From assembly GCA_024137785.1 (NCBI GenBank), contig JAHRHZ010000140.1:28535542-28599541 (forward strand): a DNA stretch of 64,000 nucleotides, in the 5' to 3' direction. Positions 3,885 through 52,345 of the stretch are shown piece after piece. This DNA is from Ginglymostoma cirratum (Eukaryota). Made by a program: the position numbers and the translations under genes. Each line of letters opens with the position of its first letter. Position 1 is the first letter of the stretch. The notes under the pieces were generated by a model. It searched no databases. It was not told the origin of the DNA and was given only the letters and a program-made list of their open reading frames with translations.

Positions 3885-4109
3885 GAGATAACAAGGCGTA
3901 GGGCTGGATGAACACAGCAGGTCAAGCAGCATCATAGGAGCAGGAAAACTTGACGTTTCAGGCCTAGACCCTTCATCAGAAAATGATGAAGGGTCGGCCC
4001 GAAACGTCAAGTTTTCCTGCTCCTATGATGCTGCTTGGCCTGCTGTGTTCATCCAGCCCTATGCTTGTTATCTCGGATTCTCCAGCATCTGCAGTACCTT
4101 TTATCTTTT
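3885..4109. mobile_element. Penelope-like insertion (family A) with inverted terminal-repeat pair and 13-bp TSD
   Basis: Arms 3885-3978 and 3984-4074 are reverse complements around a GAAAA loop. TSD ATATGAATAGCAG at 3873-3885 and 4110-4122. Confidence 0.85.
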
Positions 4110-4479
4110 ATATGAATAGCAGCTTGGTTGCCTAAAAGGTTCCAGGCAGTAGGAGTAAATCAGCCATTTTTCAGTTGGCATATTATAATAAGCAGTGTGC
4201 CATTCGGATCAGTATTAGGGTCACGATTATTTACAATCTATATCAATGACTTAGATGAACGAACCAAATGCATATTTGCTACATTTGCTGATGATACAAA
4301 GTAAGTGGAAAAGTTGTTGTGAAGAGGGCATAAAGAGTTTGAAAAGAATATACGGGCGAGAATATGATAGGTGCCCAATAATGTGAGAAAATGTGAATTC
4401 ATTCACTTTTGCGGGAAAAATAGAAAAGCAGCATACTATTTAAACAAAGATTGCAGAACTCTGAGGTAAGGAGGGAGAC

Positions 4480-4710
4480 AGTGAAGGGAGATGAGGAGGA
4501 ATTTCTTCAGCCAGGAGGTGGGGGTGAATCTGTGGAACTCATTGTATTTAAGACAGAGGTAGATAGGTTCTTGATTAGTAAGGAGATCAAAGATTATAGG
4601 GAGAAGGAAGGAGAATGGTGTTGAGAAACATATGAGCTATGATTGAATGGTGGAGCAGATTTGATGGGCCGAATGGCCTAATTCTGCTCCCATTTATTAT
4701 GGTTTTATGG
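4480..4710 (+). mobile_element. CR1 3' end nested in the older CR1
   Basis: gatgaggaggaatttcttcagcc...gatgggccgaatggcctaattctgctcc, the same tail as 6275-6693 and 51600-52345. Confidence 0.75.
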
Positions 4711-6274
4711 TGTCCTGGTACATGAATCACCAAATCTTAGAATATAGGAACAACAAATGATTATGAAAGCAAATGGAATGTTGCCATTTATTGCAAGGGT
4801 AATGAAATATCGAAGTTTTGCTACAGTTGTAGAGTATTGGTGAGGTCATGTCTGGAGTCGTATGTACAGTTCTGGTCTCCTTATTTAAGAAAGAATGGAA
4901 AGGTGTTCGGGGCAATGCAGAGAACGCAATATCACCCAACCGATATCTGGGATAGTAGGGGAGGGAGTGATAACAGGAAAGATTAGATAGGTTGGATTTG
5001 TATCCATTGGAAGAGTAAAAGGTGATCTTATTGAAACACATAACATCCTGAGGGGGATTCGACAGTATGAATGTTGAAGGGTATTTCTCCTGGGGGAGAC
5101 ACTAGAACTAAGGAACATAGTTTAAAAAATAATTGATATTCTATTTAAGACAGAGATGAGAAGGGTGTTTTTTCTCTCAAAGAGTCACGAGTCTTTGGAA
5201 CTCTCACCCTAAAGAATGGTGGAAGTGGGGTCATTGAATAATTCAAAGGAATAGGTAGCTAAATTGTTGACCAACAAAGTTCTTGGGGTAGGTGGGAATT
5301 GCTGGAGCTGAGGCCGGAACTGGATTAGCATGGTATCACAGAATGGCAGAGCAGTACAGAGGGGGTGAAGGGACTACTCCTGCTCCTAAGTAGTGTGTTA
5401 ATTATGTACATAAATATTTAAGAACATTTTTACATTGTAATATTAAATTCTGAACATGCAGCCAATTAAATAGGTTAGTGAAAGAATGACCAAAACTTAT
5501 GGATACCATTCAAAGTAGCAGGCAATAGATTTTCTCTGTTTTTTTGGGTATAAACTGAAGTAACTCCGCAAGTCTGCAGTTGTTTTTTAATCTTATTATC
5601 ACTCTGGCTAAAATAAAACTATGCTCAGTACTTAATATTTGTTAAGCGGTGATTGAAATGTTTGCCGCAGCACTTTCTAATTTTGTAGCAATTTATCCTT
5701 AGTGAGTACCCAATTAAATTCCATAAATCAACAAATTTCAGGAAACCATAAAGCATAAAGGAGCTTTTGTATTTTTCAACTATTTGAGAGCTTGAATTGA
5801 TTTGATGTAATGCACCATGGTCAGGAGTGGAAAAAGTGCCAACATAAACTGTCTGCTTATATTTCATGTGTCAGTCCTTTCCTAGGCTCGTCACAAGTTA
5901 GCATTAGTTCAAATTTCACATTGCCATGAAACCCTCCTTTGATTTCACTAAATACATAGCTTTAATATTCTTTACCATGACATGACACCACAGCAAGGTT
6001 TTCTTTGAACGCAGCAGCAATCTAATGATTTTTTTTTCCATTCACATGGTTTAAATATTTGGATGTTAGAAATTAAATGTCAATTAACTGATGAGACACA
6101 TTAATTCCCAGCCTTTCCGACTGTTTCTTTAGCAAAGTACCACCAAAGTGATGAGAAAGTAATATGGAAAAAAACTGGATTTTTCCTGCAGATTAGAACA
6201 TTTCTAAAACGTCTTTTGTTAGTGACATGTGTTAAACTGATGGACTCCTTATTTAGATTTGATTTCGTTCTCTC

Positions 6275-6693
6275 ACTCTGGGTCTGTACTCAATGGAGTT
6301 TAGAAAGATGAGGAAGGATCTCATTGAAACTTACAGGATACAGAGAGGCCTGGATAGAGTAGACATGGAGAAGGTGTTTCCACTGATAGGAGAAACTAGG
6401 ACCTGAGGGCACCGCCTCAGATTGATGGGATGATCCTTTAGAACTGAGTTGAGGACAAATTTCTTCAGTCCCAGGGTAGTGAATCTGTAGAATTCATTGC
6501 CACAGAAAGCTGTGGAGGCCAAGTCATTGAGTGTACTTAAGATAGAGATGGATAGGTTCTTGATTAGTAAGGGGATCAAAGGTTATGGGTGAAAGGCAGG
6601 AGAATGGGGTTGAGAAACATAGCCATGGTAAAATGGAGGATCAGACTTGAAGGGCCAAATGGCCTAATTCTGCTCCTATATCTCATGGTCTTA
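6275..6693 (+). mobile_element. CR1 LINE 3' end
   Basis: LGLYSMEFRKMRKDLIETY...GLDRVD...FFSPRVVNL*NSLP plus the CR1 3' tail. Confidence 0.88.
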
Positions 6694-6847
6694 GGGACTT
6701 TTGGACTTCACACTGTCCTGCTTTCTTGAATGAATAGCGGAAATAGTTCCCCAGTCTGCGTAATGCAACGACTCAGACTTTCGCAATGATGGACAGCATC
6801 TCAACTGTGATGAAAATTCTGGATGAAGCCATGAATCCTAAGTCCGC

Positions 6848-7024
6848 CTCCCCCTCTCTCCCTATTTATTTCAGAACCCTCTTCCCTTCCCCCATCTCTG
6901 ATGAAGGGTCTAGGCCCGAAACGTCAAGCTTTCCTGCTCCTATGATGCTGCTTGGCCTGCTGTGTTCATCCAGCTCCACACCTTGTTATCTCGGATTCTC
7001 CAGCATCTGCAGTACCTATTATCC
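6848..7024 (+). mobile_element. Penelope-like 3' terminal repeat (family A)
   Basis: Pyrimidine-rich run followed by CTGATGAAGGGTCTAGGCCCGAAACGTC...ggattctccagcatctgcag; near-identical to 3984-4105, 26094-26239 and 63941-64000. Confidence 0.85.
6898..6925 (+). ncRNA. Minimal type I hammerhead ribozyme motif (core intact)
   Basis: CUGAUGA-A-GGGU(CUAG)GCCC-GAAA-CG-UC: conserved core, 4-bp helix II, palindromic ACGU helix III, GUC cleavage triplet. Helix I is weak. Confidence 0.65.
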
Positions 7025-26239: not shown

Positions 26240-26604
26240 AATTCAGGTTGTTGGTTGTGTTCACAGTGTGGCACATTGTGCATTCTGCAAGTTACATATA
26301 TTAATGCACAGACCTTGTCCCTTACAGACAGAAAAAACATGTACACACATTGCACCAGTTACAAACGAACAAAACAGGTGACAGCCATTCTCTGCTAATT
26401 TCTCAGGGAATGCCTTGACTGACTAGGTAAAACCTACTTTGTTTAAGGTTTAAACAAAGCTTGGCAGTTAGCAGTCAGTCATCATCTCACGAGTGCATTC
26501 TACAATGGTAATGCCTTTATGGATCAGACTCTACTTGCTGACCAAATCAGCACTCTGCTCTCAAAAATTATAAATATTGTTTTCTCTTTACATTAGATAA
26601 AATT

Positions 26605-31589: not shown

Positions 31590-31982
31590 TGTGGAAGGTG
31601 GCATCTGAAGGTAGTTAGGATGACTAAAGTGGCATGTGACAGCAAATATGATCGGGTTAAAGTAATTGACTAAAGTGGCGCTTGACAGCAAATACTGTCA
31701 TGTCAGTATGAGTCATGGTAAATGTGTTAGAGAGATTCAATGAGTGAATACTCTGTAAGGAAATGTTTATCATAGTTGGAACAGATAGCCGTAAGGATGC
31801 TGTATGAGCAACCTCCGCACGCAAGTATCTGTCGTAATACTGTATAAAAAGCCACGTCTACTCACCATAAGCAGCATAAGCTCAAAGATGTACTAAGAAG
31901 TGCTTTCAATAAAGACAACCTTTAAGACTTCTGCCCGGTGTCCGTCTTGCTCCTGTTCGCCAGTCTCAGAAAGATTCCAACA
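31590..31982 (+). repeat. ERV 5' LTR (~393 bp)
   Basis: Starts TGTGGAA, ends TTCCAACA (imperfect inverted termini). TATAAAAA at 31843, AATAAA at 31908, U3 direct repeat TGACTAAAGTGGC...TGACAGCAAATA at 31621 and 31667. PBS follows 3 nt later. The 5' boundary is inferred. Confidence 0.8.
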
Positions 31983-31985
31983 ACT

Positions 31986-32003
31986 TGGCGTAGCTGGCAG
32001 GAT
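31986..32003 (+). promoter_or_regulatory. Primer-binding site complementary to tRNA-Ser
   Basis: TGGCGTAGCTGGCAGGAT matches 16/18 to TGGCGTAGTCGGCAGGAT, the reverse complement of the vertebrate tRNA-Ser(AGA/TGA) 3' end. Confidence 0.85.
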
Positions 32004-32275
32004 CACAATAAAATGCCCTACCACCACCATTGCTCTCATTTTATTCTACTGGCGACTGCGAGGTAAGGACTCCTCTATTTAAAAGTCCTTGGGAGAAAGT
32101 GATAGTCTAAATGGTGGAAGGTCCTGTCTGACATGATCCAAAGAAGGTGAGCCTAGTCAATCCAGAGTTTGTTGTTAAAAAGAGATGTCTCTTTTGGTAA
32201 TAAATTAGATTATCTATGGCTCAAAAAGAGTCTAGTTTCGGTTCTGATCTAAGAGATGTGAGACCTAGCGTAAAA

Positions 32276-33716
32276 ATGTCTTGTTCGTCACCAACTACTG
32301 TCAAAGGTAAGCAGGCACCGCCTGACATTCTAGAAGAGGAAGTCTTGCAAAAGGATATATTGAACAACAATGCAATCTCCCTACCACCTTAATGGAAATT
32401 TGTAAATTTCCAAGAGACAATGGTCCCTGGATGAAATCAAACCAGCTTGGGGAAAAAGTACCCAACTCGTAGGTAAAGAATGAACTTGATGGTCTCTTTG
32501 TGTTATGCAACAGTTAAGACAGAGACAAGAGATCATTGACCAGTCCAATCATGACCAAAAAGTGAATAATTTGAAAGCGTATATAATGAATTAAAAAGAA
32601 CTAAAGACAAATAGGCCGCTGCTAAAAAGGAGATAGAATACATGAAGACTTCTTCGCTGACTCTGCCACCTTACCCCGCTACACCTTTATATTCCGTTCT
32701 TACTCCGAGTGCACCCCCTCTTAAAGGCAACTTGGAACTGTCCTCAGAAAGTAATGACAATTCCGAAACTAGTAAGGGAACCCCTGTGGCCATGTGCCCA
32801 GTCTGACTAAAACAATAAAAATGGAAAAAGACGAATGTCAAAGAAAAGGACAATGACCGGGGAGGGTCCAAATACAAATATACACAATGGGCTGCTCATA
32901 AGCCCCGATCTGAAATTGGTCGAAAAGTCGTCAAAAGAATTGCCTAGAAGACCCAGAAAGCGGGGTCTAAAAACTTGGAGTGAATTGGAAAATTTGAAAA
33001 ATATTTACTCGTTACATCCCATAGACAGAGTTCAAATTTTATCCGCCATGGTGGAATCAAATATGGGAAATTAACTTCTCACTCGAGTGACACCACAGTT
33101 CGGAGAGAATGGACAGAAGTTAGAGGACAGGTGGCGTTCTATCCGCAACTGGCTCCACGATCACAGCCCTCCTCAGACAGACTGTAACAAAATAACTAAT
33201 GTCAACAAAAAGGTACTGAAGACGTTAGGGACTTCGAGGATATTCGGTTAGAACACTGAGAGCTTGCTCGGGATGGTGGGCCAGACGATATAGAAAAACA
33301 GACACTCGCCCAATTAAAATCAGCCTTTGTGTTTGGCCTTAAACCCAAACTCGCAAAAATGTTGAAGTTACATTGCTGCGATCGGGAGCAGCACCACACC
33401 TCCCTCAGAGACCTGATTGGAGAAGGAAGTAAGCTGGAACAGGACATGGAATCAAAACTGAGTCATGCCCACTGTAGACCCTACTAACACTGATAAACAT
33501 CCCAGAAAATGCCACAATTGTGTAATGGAAGGACATTGGAGTAAAATTTGCAGACAGAAGAAAAATAATCCAGGTGGGAAACAGAATCCCAAACCACCTA
33601 AAGGGGCTTCTAGATGCGATAAATTCATCCTAATGCAATGCCTGACTCTACTTGAGCAATATAAAGGGTACTCAGAGTCTCAACTGAAGCAGTTCATTGA
33701 TCTTACAAAAAACTAA
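32276..33716 (+). pseudogene. gag: ERV gag (frameshifted, with stops)
   Basis: LPPYP...PSAPP late-domain region (PSAP at 32705-32716); capsid segment YSLHPID; MHR-like QQKGTEDVRDF; LKSAFVFGLKP; single CX2CX4HX4C knuckle CHNCVMEGHWSKIC at 33510-33551; TAA at 33714-33716. Start position is approximate. Confidence 0.88.
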
Positions 33717-34125
33717 CTCAGCCCACCCACTACCTGTTAGCCCCTTTTCCTGCAGCTTTAGAAAATCAACTGGACAGCTGTTATGTTTTAATGGGAGTGG
33801 GCGATAAGGAAATTGACTGTCTCCTTGACACAGATGCCAAGTTAACTTGTCCTTCCTTTGTCAGATGGCCATGGTCTACCCTGAAAGGGTGAGAAGAGGA
33901 CAGCAGTGGGAGCTGGGGAGAAATAACTCAAGATTGAGAAAACTGAACCCCTTCCTGATACAGCTGGGCCCCTATGAAATAGTCACCTCCATGTGGGTGG
34001 GTCCCGTCACACAAGCTTTACGGGGCATAGATGTATTGACCCAGATAAACCAGTCAACAACAAGATGGACAATGGTCAAGTCACCTGGTCCATAAGGCAT
34101 CTTACCCAAGAGGAATAGCAAGACC
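33713..34125 (+). pseudogene. pro: ERV aspartic protease (-1 frame to gag, active site mutated)
   Basis: Frame is open from the slippery site: LTQPTHYLL...MGVGDKEIDCLLDTDAKLTC (LLDTGA changed to LLDTDA at 33827-33835), later ALRGIDVL (LxGxD motif) after a frameshift. Confidence 0.82.
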
Positions 34126-34127
34126 AC

Positions 34128-34566
34128 CAGGAAGGCCTACCTTGGCACAAGCTTTACCCTGGTCTTGTGCAGTATACGGGCAACTCCCGATAGGATTATA
34201 GGCCTCAGTCCCTTTGAAGTCATGACAGGTCGGCCTATGTCCTCACCCAGTACCATTGACCTACGTACTGCTGACTACCACCTGTTAATTGACCTTTTGC
34301 TCCAATATTGTCAAGATCTAACCATAGCTGTGAGCTCTGCTTCTCAAAAGGTGTCGACAGCTTGGGGGAATCCCCCAGATGGAGCACACAACTTAGTTCC
34401 CGGCACCTGGGTCTACATCAAAAAACTACATAAAGAACCTTTCGCCGCTATGTGGGAAGGTCCATACCAAGTTCTGCTGACAACACAATCCACTGTTAAA
34501 GTCCACAACAAGAAATCTTGGATCCACTCATCCCACTTAAAAAGGACTCACAATATCGAAACATGA
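34128..34566 (+). pseudogene. pol: ERV integrase, C-terminal half only
   Basis: EGLPW...LVLCSIRATP...GLSPFEVMTGRPM...WEGPYQVLLTT...VKV...WIHSSHLK is the GPY/F-type integrase tail of class I ERVs. Confidence 0.92.
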
Positions 34567-35773
34567 AGTTGTCCGCGATAAGTCTGTTACTCGCGTCTTT
34601 TTGTATGGTTTCAACTGGTAATGTACCTAAATGAGAACTAAATGTAAACACTTTCCTTTACCTCTCATACTTATGTCTTTACAAATACTGTGGCCAGCTG
34701 TCAGGTGTGTACCCATATTCCGACCCACTCTAAAGGGGGAATCCAATTACATCCAGTCCCCTTCAATGCCTCTGAAGTGGCGGAGCGGGTGCTGAAACAG
34801 AACAACTCACTGCCCGGAAATTGAGAGGGTTTACAGACCGAAGCTGACTGCTCAATGGCTAACAACGACAGGCTAATATACGAGTGGGCAATCTGCAGGG
34901 TACCCCCTCACCGTCTTCCATAGATTCTAACAACCAGACTACTGCACCACCTCCTCTCCCCCTTTTGTTACACTGACCAACACTTTGTATGAAGGCAGGC
35001 GCAGAACCCTTATCTGTCTCACCTGAACAGCAGTTCAGGAGAAAGGGACACCCATGGGAGTCAGCAAATGCTCCCAATTTTATAACATTTCTATTTTCCC
35101 CTTCTTGGGGGAGAATTCCCAATCCTTTCTGACCAAAGGGACTCAACAGCTCTGTCCTCACGCAGGGCTCCAACAGACTTCTTACTTTTCGCAAAGCCAA
35201 CTGCGGAGACACTTTTAAATAAAATTGTTTACTAAAAATATTACCCGTTTCACCCGCTTTAACGGTACCTATTTTGTTTGTGACCACAAGGCATACGCCT
35301 GGTTATTCCCCTCCTGGACAGGGTCCTGTTATCTCGCTTATGTGGTCTCGTTTATGGGTCACCTTACAAAACTTCCCGATGTCCGCTCTACTATGCGCAG
35401 GATGCCATCACTGAAACCGAACAATTCTTTTCTATTCTGTTTTCCCCGTATGGCACTGCCAGGTTGGCCAAGGAATTATACAATTTGGCTACTGCCCTGG
35501 ATCAGATAGCTAATGACGCAGCCCGCGCCTTAGATAAAACCACTGCCGAAATGCTAGCCATTCGCACAACTGTCTTGCGAAACCAAACAGCCCAAGACTA
35601 GCTTCTCTCTGAAAAAGGAGGCACATGTGCCCTCATTGCGAAAGAATGCTACACTTACCTCCCTGACAGTTCAGAGAAAATTACCAAACTTGTGGATTAC
35701 ATCCGTAAAGACGCTGACAAACTCAAATACCCCCAGAAAACACCCTTTGGAGTTGGGCTATGGGTTGGTTAGG
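34563..35773 (+). pseudogene. env: ERV gamma-type env, truncated before the membrane anchor
   Basis: Signal peptide MKLSAISLLLASFCMVST; CQVC (CxxC) at 34699-34710; NGTYFVCDHKAYAWL...WTGSCYLAY; basic cleavage region RSTMRR; heptad; ISD-like LRNQTAQD*LLSEKGGTC plus CALIAKECY (35575-35652); ends at W-rich LWSWAMGWLG. Confidence 0.92.
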
Positions 35774-37542
35774 ATAGCACCATTAAAATGGAAAGGACAT
35801 GATTAAGAAGTATTTTCCATATGTGACTATCTAATATATTTGTTACTGTTTCCAAATTAAATATGTACTTTATGGAGAAAGACGTAGCAGTGTTGAGAAT
35901 ACAGATCCACTTTATGTTATATACATGTTTTCTAACATTAGGTTAAAAAGCATACTGCTTTTCAATACTTAAATAACTACAACTCCTGATCCGGCAAATA
36001 CTGCTAAAATCTGGGAATCAATGGCACTTTGAATTTGCCATTTCATCAGGTCTATACAAGTTGATAGTTATGTCTTTGGGATGAAGAATGTATTTGCTAC
36101 GTTATTGTAGTATCAGCCTACACGGGTTCCAGGAGACCTGTTGCACTGCTTGAGGAATGGCAGAATTTCCCAGTTGCCTATCCGTCCCAGCTGTGACCCT
36201 GTTCTAAATGCTCAGAACAGGATCATTAATGTATTAGACGTGGGCACCTGGCCAGTATTAAGGCACCTTCCGTTTTAACCCAATACGCAAATTGGTTGTT
36301 GCTGACTAATGGGTCAAATGGCCTTTTTCGGCACTGTAGGGATTCATTGATATCCAGCAAAGTTTGGACAACATTAAGGCTTGACAATTAACATTCAGAC
36401 CATACACATTCTGGGCAATGAGCATCTCCAAACGACAAGTTCTAAACACTTTCCCTTGGTGTTCAACGACTGTTTCAGCATTGAGCGTCCCTTCATTAGT
36501 ATCCTGGGATAACATTAACCAGAAACTTTTGATTCCCACCTTGAAGCTGAAAATTTGGGCCTAAGTGTCAGTGGGACGTTTGCCAGTGACCGTTGTCACA
36601 ACTAACTGGAAATCTACCCTCAGTGGTTATATACATACGAAAACTTAACAGCAGAATCACGAACTCAAGATCAAAGTGAGAATGTTGTTTGATTTTTTTG
36701 CTTCCCCAGGCCAAGGGCAGTAAAGTCAGCTGAGGTCAGGAAAATCAACATGGAGCAGTATTCGGCAGCAGTAGTGCGATAGTACAAGTGCTTCAGCAGT
36801 AAATTCAATATTGGCCATGTTAAATACAGCAGTAATATGTCAAACCATGAGAGCTTTACTGTTGATACTCAAAACAGCAACTACAATTCATGTGATTCTT
36901 CCAAGTAATCCTGCCAACATTTGGAATGAAACAGAATCAAGTTTCTTCAAGGGTGTTAAGAGTAAAACCAGAAATAATGACAATTTATTAACAGCAAGGC
37001 AAGGCCAACAAAAATAAACTGCAGTATATAGCTTCCAAATCAGAGCGGTTTATATCAATGTTCACCTTTGGCCCACTCTTTTAAGTGTTTCATTGAAACA
37101 GCAGGATGGCCTCAACCAATTCCCGTTCTGTAAATGTCATCAGGCAGCCATAGCAAGCAGTTCAAGCAGGGTCAAGCGTGGCTAAATCATCCTTTATCTG
37201 CTAGAGAAGGGAATTTTTCATTTCCATGAAGTAATTGATGTGTTGGTTCAAACAGGATCAAATGAAACTTATACTGGTTTGCAAGAATGAGTATTAAGCA
37301 TTCCTCAAAATAACTGTATGATTTTGTTTATCAAGTAGACACTCAGTCCGGGCATTTCCAACAAATTAGGAGTCTAAGAAGAATTAGAAATATACGAGCT
37401 ATGCTGAATTTAATAGGTTAACATGGATAACTTTTGATGGTTGGTGTTGGCACAGTACAGGCTTTAGCCACTCTTGCAACTATCCTTGAAGACATAGCAA
37501 CATGGTTTTATTGTTTGCAAACAAGAGATTTCAGTTACTTAC

Positions 37543-42554: not shown

Positions 42555-43435
42555 TACAAGTTTACAGAGAGATATTCATAGGTAAGTAAGTAGGCAAAAT
42601 GTTGGCAAATGAGTACAATGTGGGGAAATATAAAGTTGTTCAATTTAGAAGGGTGAACAAGTGAACAGCATTACTTAAATGGGGGAAAACCTACAGAAAC
42701 TGCAACATAAATGGACTTGGGATACTTGTGCACGAAACAAAGGAAGCGAGTACATAAGTGCAGCAGGTAATCAGGAAGGCTAATGGGATGTTGGGCCTTA
42801 TTTCAAGGGGCTTAGAGTAAACAGCCAAGGAAGACCTACTGCAAATATACAAGGTGCTGGTGAGATCACATCTGGAGTACTGTGAGCAGTTTTGGTCCCC
42901 TTATTTATGCAAAAACATGTCATCTGGGGTGTTTCAGAGCAGATTCACTGGGATGATCTCTAGCATGGAGGGCTTGTTTTACTGGCAAAGGATAAACAGT
43001 TTGGGACTCTATTCACTTGAATTTAGAAGAATGAGAGGTGATTTCACTGAAGTATATAGGATTCTTAAGAGGTTTAACAGGGTAAATGCTGAGAGCACAT
43101 TTCCCCTGATGGGAGACGAAGGGTCAGAGGTATAGTCTCAGAATGAAGGGGAGTCAACTTCAGATTGAGATGCACAGGAATATCTTCTGTCAGAGGGTTG
43201 AGAGTCTTTAGAACTACTGGCCACAGAGAACTTTCAGAGGCAAAGTCCTTGTGTATATTTAAGGCTGAGATAGAAAGAATCTTGATCAGTAGGGGAATCA
43301 AGCGTTAGGGGGAAAGGGCAGGAAAGTAGACATGAGGAATGTCAGATCAGACATTATTCTTTGAATGGCAGAACAGGCTCGAGGGGCTGAATGGTCTACT
43401 CCTGTTCCTATTTATTATGGTCTTATGGTCTTACA
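42555..43435 (+). mobile_element. CR1 LINE 3' portion
   Basis: LVRSHLEYCEQFWSPY...LGLYSLEFRRMRGD plus the CR1 tail. Confidence 0.88.
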
Positions 43436-51599: not shown

Positions 51600-52345
51600 A
51601 GTTCAAAATGGGGAGATAATTCAGAAATCTGAAGTGCAAAGAGACTTGGTAGTCCTAGTCCAGGATTCTCTAAAGGTTAGCTTGCAGGTTAAGTCAATAG
51701 TTAGGAAGGAAAATATAAGGTTGGCATTTATTTCAAAAGGACTAGAATGTAAAAGTGGGGTTGTACTTCTGAGGTTTCATAAGGCTTTGGTCAGATGGCA
51801 TTTAGAATATCATGAGCAATTTTGGGCCCCATATCTCAGGAAGGATGCAATGGCCCGGGAGGGGTTCCAGAGGAGGTTCACGAGAATGATGCCAGGAATG
51901 AAAGGCTTAACATATAAGGAATGTTTGAGGACTCTGGGTCTGTACTCGAGTGTGAAGGATGAGGAGAAATCAAATTGAAGCTTACAGAATACTTAAAGGC
52001 TTGGACAGAGTGGACGTTGAGAAGACGTTTCCATTAGCAGGAGAATCTAGGACCCGAGGGCCCAGCCTTAGAATAAAAGGAAGATCCTTTAGAACACAGA
52101 TGAGGAGAAACTTCTTCAGCCAGAGAGTGGTGGATCTTTGGAATTCATTGCCACAGCAGGCTGTTGAGGCCAGGTCATTGAGTATATCTAAGACAGAGAT
52201 AGATAGGGTCTTGATTGTTAAGGGGATCAAAGTTTACAGGGAGAAGGCGGAAGAATGGGGTTGTGAAACTTATCAGCCATGACTAAATGGCGGTGTAGAC
52301 GCAGTGGGCCAAATGGCCTAATTTCTGCTCCTATGTCTTATGGTC
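51600..52345 (+). mobile_element. CR1 LINE 3' portion
   Basis: VQRDLVVLV...LVRWHLEYHEQFWAPY...FFSQRVVDLWNSLP plus the CR1 tail. Confidence 0.9.

Follow-up and report, generated by a model that had tools for sequence, protein, structure and literature searches.

An endogenous retrovirus of Ginglymostoma cirratum carries the slippery heptamer A_AAA_AAC at the exact end of gag, and its protease is encoded one base back. This combination makes a frameshifting ancestor likely, and on the sequence evidence we consider it probable that the ancestor made Gag-Pro-Pol by a single -1 frameshift on A_AAA_AAC. What is observed is the layout of the junction and which genes its two frames belong to, both read in the window (the whole stretch of DNA analysed, 64,000 nucleotides), while slippage, a stimulator and conservation are what we infer.

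The gag-pro junction in a decayed provirus

The element contains the following features.

31843..31982, plus strand: 3' part of the 5' LTR, with TATA at 31843, AATAAA at 31908 and the end ..AACA
31986..32003, plus strand: primer binding site (PBS), which we take to be of the tRNA-Ser type
32216..33716, plus strand: gag, decayed, with frame breaks near 32366, 33199 and ~33470, several stops and the C-terminus ..DLTKN*
33510..33551, plus strand: single CCHC zinc knuckle (Pfam zf-CCHC E 0.004, under the curated cut-off; the motif is visible in the translation)
33701..34056, plus strand: pro, open in the -1 frame at 33701-33889, with DTDA at 33827, homologous to the protease of the related proteins P0001 and P0023
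33707-33713, plus strand: slippery heptamer A_AAA_AAC in the gag frame, abutting the gag stop TAA at 33714-33716
33721..33802, plus strand: candidate stem-loop 3' of the junction, extended, in two alternative registers and without statistical support
34057..34146, plus strand: zone of the large deletion in which RT, RNase H and the integrase core were lost
34125..34566, plus strand: C-terminal part of integrase with the WEGPY motif (GPY 34459-34467; Pfam MLVIN_C E 8.5e-12)
34563..35796, plus strand: gamma-type env with what we take to be the SU CxxC, the TM immunosuppressive region and a degenerate CX6CC; broken, and ending short of the membrane anchor

The gag tail reads ACA AAA AAC TAA at 33705-33716 and gives the C-terminal residues ..QFIDLTKN*. 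From 33701 the -1 frame is open, and its translation as far as 33889-33892 is SYKKLTQPTHYLL...CLLDTDA...STLKG*, in which the catalytic D of the protease (LLDTDA) is encoded at 33827. The preliminary description had placed A-AAA-AAC at 33707-33713 before the gag stop and had read the -1 frame as open through LLDTDA; the window letters confirm both, and the frame is open from 33701. Both frames are secure, because the gag frame holds the CCHC knuckle and the last Gag helix, whose match in the alignment is the helix at the C-terminus of the Gag relatives. When compared with the leaders of P0001 and P0023, the -1 leader scored no better than other frames. The arrangement is that of a -1 frameshift signal (X_XXY_YYZ in the upstream frame and the downstream ORF in -1), and the one-frame gag/pro across a stop that is a class I feature is not found in the Ginglymostoma copy. 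A canonical heptamer with an immediate stop occurs 26 times in the 64,000 bases of the window (2 of them in the 3.8-kb element), so its position at the exact gag terminus is unlikely to be due to chance.

In a frameshifting ancestor, most ribosomes would terminate Gag at TAA, and a minority with tRNA-Lys and tRNA-Asn would slip one base back and continue into pro-pol, as in class II retroviruses. A_AAA_AAC or G_GGA_AAC stands at the gag-pro junction of MMTV, HTLV, EIAV and SRV-1. One would expect a 3' stimulator at a distance of 5-9 nt downstream, and a weak and possibly decayed stem-loop may be left there. The GCCCAC/GTGGGC stem proposed in the preliminary description has both arms present (33721-26 and 33797-802) and complementary, but the pairing probability of this register with 7-nt spacing (33721) is ~0.06, versus ~0.88 for a register from 33726, and the fold downstream of the junction, in decayed sequence, is no better than shuffles (z -0.37; 67/200 shuffles equally good; z -0.98 in a second scan). 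The favoured register extends to a G-U rich stem of 14 pairs and starts 9 nt past the gag stop, a spacing that would equally suit a readthrough element. No compact pseudoknot stem starting within 33716-33729 was found. As evidence, the downstream fold is neutral between frameshift and readthrough, and neither supports nor excludes either of them.

The Ginglymostoma copy of the provirus is dead. Aligned to its relatives with frameshifts allowed, it shows 6 frame breaks per 1,762 aligned bases plus several stops, and pro has further frame breaks near 33848 and 33957 and stops at 33882 and 33924. Protease homology runs to ~34056 and integrase homology starts from 34125-34162. This heavy decay and the deletion of most of pol were absent from the preliminary description, while the Ser PBS, single knuckle, GPY integrase and gamma-type env that it named are all present. 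The integrase tail is 56% identical to P0023, 50% to P0001 and 29-35% to P0002/P0003/P0004/P0024. In env, tblastn with the PF00429-bearing P0004 matches 35470-35658 (E 9e-4), and a Pfam search of the window env gave no match. By eye, and in the published sequence available, this env closely resembles that of CmiERV lineage I, and CmiERV scaffold 2 has the same layout of LTR end and PBS, its PBS matching at 16/18 bases. At 34563-34566 the first codon of env and the last of pol overlap (ATGA), an arrangement likewise described for XtERV-S (PMC8278194).

A 28-nt direct repeat (89% identical; 31621-31694) stands upstream of the TATA box and is probably within the LTR U3. The long leader hairpin at 32138-32230, which lies just ahead of the gag start and reaches over it, has the highest stability among 82 windows over the element (z -4.6 and -3.0 in two scans) and is a possible packaging or dimerisation element. 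Three overlapping env windows at 34990-35175 are more stable than their shuffles (z -2.6 to -3.1). Dispersed host repeats, presumably shark SINE and CR1-type LINE ends, lie at 3996-6998, 26094-26244, 43361-43429 and 51954-52323. In the 64,000-nt window neither a 3' LTR, nor a second copy of the element, nor a long host ORF was found, and Rfam gave no match there; a PDB search with the protease piece also gave none.

Gag termini and junctions of relatives

Searching with the capsid piece gave 18 proteins, of which P0010 and P0020 were excluded as non-Gag repeat proteins, leaving 16 Gags. Four of these 16 end in K-N or G-N (P0005 ..PKN*, P0016 ..QGN*, P0019 ..PGN* and P0006 ..SKNY*), the dipeptides encoded by A_AAA_AAC and G_GGA_AAC. 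The four have ~33-47% capsid identity and are spread over the tree, P0005 being nearest to the window. Compared with the background dipeptide frequency, this is an excess (binomial P~4e-4) which is also compatible with conservation at the protein level. At the penultimate Gag residue, variation is limited to residues permitted by the slippery P-site codon. The other 12 of 16 Gags have no K-N/G-N end, and the majority of them are gene models that are truncated or fused; in P0009, A-N-Y is followed by 14 further residues. Both P0006 and P0009 have N-Y in place of the N-stop of other Gags, and these two cases hint at a constraint at the DNA level, because Tyr codons begin with the same two bases as UAA/UAG. 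The Gag family P0005/P0006/P0009/P0011/P0014/P0016/P0019 has no Pfam capsid match and carries a long coiled coil upstream of CA, and the capsid region of P0016 folds as retroviral CA in a model.

The closest Pols are P0023 (Astyanax mexicanus) and P0001. P0023 Pol, an NCBI gene model, starts 14 residues ahead of the position expected for the gag stop and passes it via F-K-L-I. F-K-L is the -1 reading of U_UUA_AAC plus stop, the distance from F-K-L to DTG is 36 residues (38 in the window equivalent), and the +1 frame of P0023 is able to encode L-L-S-A..L-N-stop, a Gag-like tail. These three properties, chosen post hoc, coincided in 1 of 12,257 control windows, from a pool that included P0023's own site. 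P0001 Pol begins at the expected stop position and is without an upstream slip signature. At the protein level, slippage is supported in 4 of the 16 Gags and in one of the two family Pols (P0023), and several lineage members likely frameshift, on A_AAA_AAC, G_GGA_AAC and U_UUA_AAC. A word-index search with the 84-aa Gag end gave no match, two scans of genome contigs for contaminating host DNA carrying relatives found none, and Atlas searches returned generic Gag and RT clusters only.

A post-insertion indel is a serious alternative, because the element is heavily decayed. The ancestor would then have read through an in-frame stop, the -1 offset would be a later break, and K-N/G-N would be conserved as the end of the protein, perhaps as a cleavage site. 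Published relatives argue for this. In the available sequences of Xu et al. 2018 (PMC6001957), the family is recognisable by eye in pike es_lu_ERV3, gar le_oc_ERV2, carp cy_ca_ERV4 and cod ga_mo_ERV4; the cod consensus, of the same Gag and Pol family, has gag and pro in frame across UGA-CUA, likewise by eye. The whale shark rh_ty_ERV4 consensus, from a neighbouring sublineage, is in frame across UGA-CGG with a Gag end L-N in non-slippery codons (PMC6001957, by eye), and CmiERV scaffold 2 of the elephant shark keeps one frame across UGA-CAU, with E-G-N five codons before the stop (Han 2015, PMC4422223, by eye). In total, 3 of the 3 scoreable junction DNAs of relatives in these sources are in frame across UGA, only cod being in the same Gag family, and a -1 junction was seen in the window copy only. 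The whale shark and CmiERV ends indicate that N-terminated Gags exist alongside readthrough.

The pike es_lu_ERV3 Gag reads ..AVEGN-DPLL.. directly ahead of the protease leader (PMC6001957, by eye), and its recoding mode is not visible, since the protein is printed without a stop or break mark. Eel an_an_ERV1 (Gag end Q-UAG-G) was left unscored because its protease is partly deleted. Slip-plus-stop decamers gave 2 matches in the accessible part of the Xu 2018 S2 Data, both irrelevant, and four such decamers gave 0 matches in the accessible Han 2015 dataset.

Readthrough is also reported, in the available text of these papers, for SnRV, SSSV, ZFERV, RMEV, XtERV-S and Ovex1 (PMC13517186, PMC8278194, PMC2717909), and both the rate of decay and the 9-nt spacing of the favoured stem would suit it. 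However, the gag frame meets its next stops at 33738 and 33759, so under readthrough the break is confined to the ~20 nt that follow the end of gag. At 6 breaks per 1,762 nt, one of the right sign falls there with P~0.03. A perfect heptamer would in addition have to arise by coincidence next to a UAA stop, which is the junction stop of the Ginglymostoma copy; for SnRV, SSSV, ZFERV and RMEV the stop given in the available text of a 2026 review is UAG or UGA (PMC13517186). The F-K-L extension of P0023 would also be left unexplained. From the above, we consider a readthrough ancestor with a later break unlikely.

For the -1 frameshift itself, which the preliminary description had claimed for gag-pro, the protein termini of relatives (K-N/G-N and the F-K-L of P0023) count in favour, as evidence that is independent yet indirect, and the cod junction of the same family, in frame across UGA-CUA, counts against. 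Taking the several likely frameshifters together with the in-frame cod junction, it is likely that the recoding mode switched within the lineage.

Placement of the lineage

The window has no RT, and the lineage was therefore placed by proxy through P0001 and P0023. In the RT tree, which has no named reference viruses and a trichotomy at its deeper fork, P0001 and P0023 form a pair (95/97) that lies outside the class I-like clade, which is that of P0026-28 (96/97), so these proxies do not show a class I RT grouping. The family labels stand at the foot of 'Clade Huo' in the S2 Fig text of Xu 2018 (PMC6001957), in which branches are not visible and members were matched by eye, and the lineage appears to belong to clade Huo (the snakehead-retrovirus/class III side, related to ERV-L). 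Some RT positions are unstable, as a review by the same authors warns (PMC8922424). Class I-like traits persist in RT and capsid. P0001 scores 383 bits with MLV RT, 160 with foamy Pol and ~46-61 with class II RT/Pol chains. For the P0016 capsid model, the best solved match is MLV CA (E 1e-6), with Z 11.2, rmsd 2.5 and 87 aligned residues for the C-terminal domain, in a tie with PEG10; among named retroviruses, WEHV2/WDSV Gag is nearest.

The GPY/F integrase end, 1-2 knuckles and gamma-type env are all found in the element, but these traits are not exclusive to class I (clades Jin and Mu), and GPY/F and a zinc finger are possible in SnRV/Ovex1-related ERVs (Chong 2014, PMC4299795). For this reason, and because the family RT lies outside the class I-like clade, the class I/gamma-type integrase of the preliminary description is not diagnostic. 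As to its mosaic lineage, a Ser PBS and gamma-type env are also combined in the SnRV-like CmiERV lineage I (PMC4422223) and in XtERV-S (PMC8278194), so that a special mosaic is unneeded. Its divergent fish lineage was right, and matches a published fish ERV sublineage by eye. The element is probably an intermediate fish lineage on the Huo side, neither a class I virus nor a special mosaic.

The fish ERVs of Xu 2018 and Eluc.ERVi.2 share, by eye and in the available sequences, the LHPxD capsid motif family, the C-terminal Gag helix, the protease leader and the RT motifs of P0001/P0023. They differ in that cod is in frame across UGA-CUA while the Ginglymostoma copy, which is decayed and without RT, has a -1 offset, and the accessible text of Xu 2018 (PMC6001957) describes no recoding mode for this sublineage. 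SnRV has one knuckle as well (PMC1224870), and the window's relatives have its xDYR-type RT motif; unlike the element, SnRV and CmiERV lineage I have another Gag type and an in-frame UAG (SnRV, PMC13517186) or UGA (CmiERV, PMC4422223). The gamma- and epsilonretroviruses (MLV, WDSV, SSSV, ZFERV) resemble it in capsid fold, MLVIN_C/GPY end, gamma-type env and best solved RT match, but they use readthrough (PMC13517186, PMC1224870, in the text available) and the family RT is outside their xDLR-type clade.

With class II retroviruses the element shares the heptamer type and the -1 geometry, and it differs from them by its single knuckle and gamma-type env and by the single pro/pol frame and lack of dUTPase in P0001/P0023. 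It is not placed in class II (clade Shui), given one knuckle and the weak RT scores of P0001. Membership in ERV3/ERV4/foamy, defined by no Gag zinc finger and no GPY/F motif (PMC4299795), does not fit an element with both. Membership in the lokiretroviruses was rejected too: their env is related to the fusion proteins of negative-strand RNA viruses (PMC8922424), and the env here is gamma-type.

Two other explanations of the junction were weighed. The offset could be original, with Pro-Pol made in a foamy-like way from a start codon of its own or a spliced transcript and the heptamer incidental, and we regard this as very improbable. The lineage labels do adjoin clade Tu (foamy) in the published tree text available (PMC6001957), and the -1 frame has an ATG 12 codons ahead of DTDA. 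Nevertheless, the family implies three different slippery heptamers at the same site, Gag combines a CCHC knuckle with a capsid of orthoretroviral type, and the RT score of P0001 favours MLV over foamy Pol. It is just as hard to credit that recombination brought the junction in from a class II retrovirus or Ty3/gypsy, giving a true mosaic with class I integrase/env: frameshifting is typical of class II (PMC13517186, PMC1224870) and env exchange between classes is documented for XtERV-S (PMC8278194), but the same Gag and Pol types co-occur in the available pike es_lu_ERV3 record, the Gag relative P0011 ends with a cod-type protease peptide, the capsid model is closest to MLV and epsilon Gag instead of class II or Ty3, and there is one knuckle only.

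Recoding as a marker of retroviral branches

Jern et al. 2005 treated translational strategy as a 'global' marker, with a one-frame gamma branch, including SnRV, versus a frameshifting beta branch (PMC1224870). Ovex1 (PMC2717909) and XtERV-S (PMC8278194) conform to this one-frame rule, and the fish and amphibian retroviruses covered in the available text of the 2026 review all use readthrough (PMC13517186). In the literature searched, largely open-access text, gag-pro frameshifting was not found described for the lineage. The accessible text of PMC8672886, PMC7947760 and PMC10435555 does not contain the word 'frameshift', and that of PMC5210030, PMC12193657 and bioRxiv 2024.07.05.601823 is unrelated to frameshifting in the lineage. 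The lineage is known as tree tips, and its likely frameshift and apparent recoding switch seem undescribed.

We lean towards a wider reading, in which a non-class-II fish lineage, still invading genomes, would use a -1 frameshift with at least three interchangeable heptamers and would have switched, at this one junction, between frameshifting and UGA readthrough. It can be tested directly, since intact, insertionally polymorphic relatives have been published: Eluc.ERVi.2 and the carp-type Mamb.ERVi.1a-c and Oste.ERVi.1a/b (RT alignment available from Wang & Han 2023). If this reading is true, the rule of Jern et al. would be broken, and the lineage would offer a natural pair in which to follow the replacement of one recoding signal by another. 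Translational strategy would then be labile within one retroviral lineage, and no fixed marker of the two great branches.
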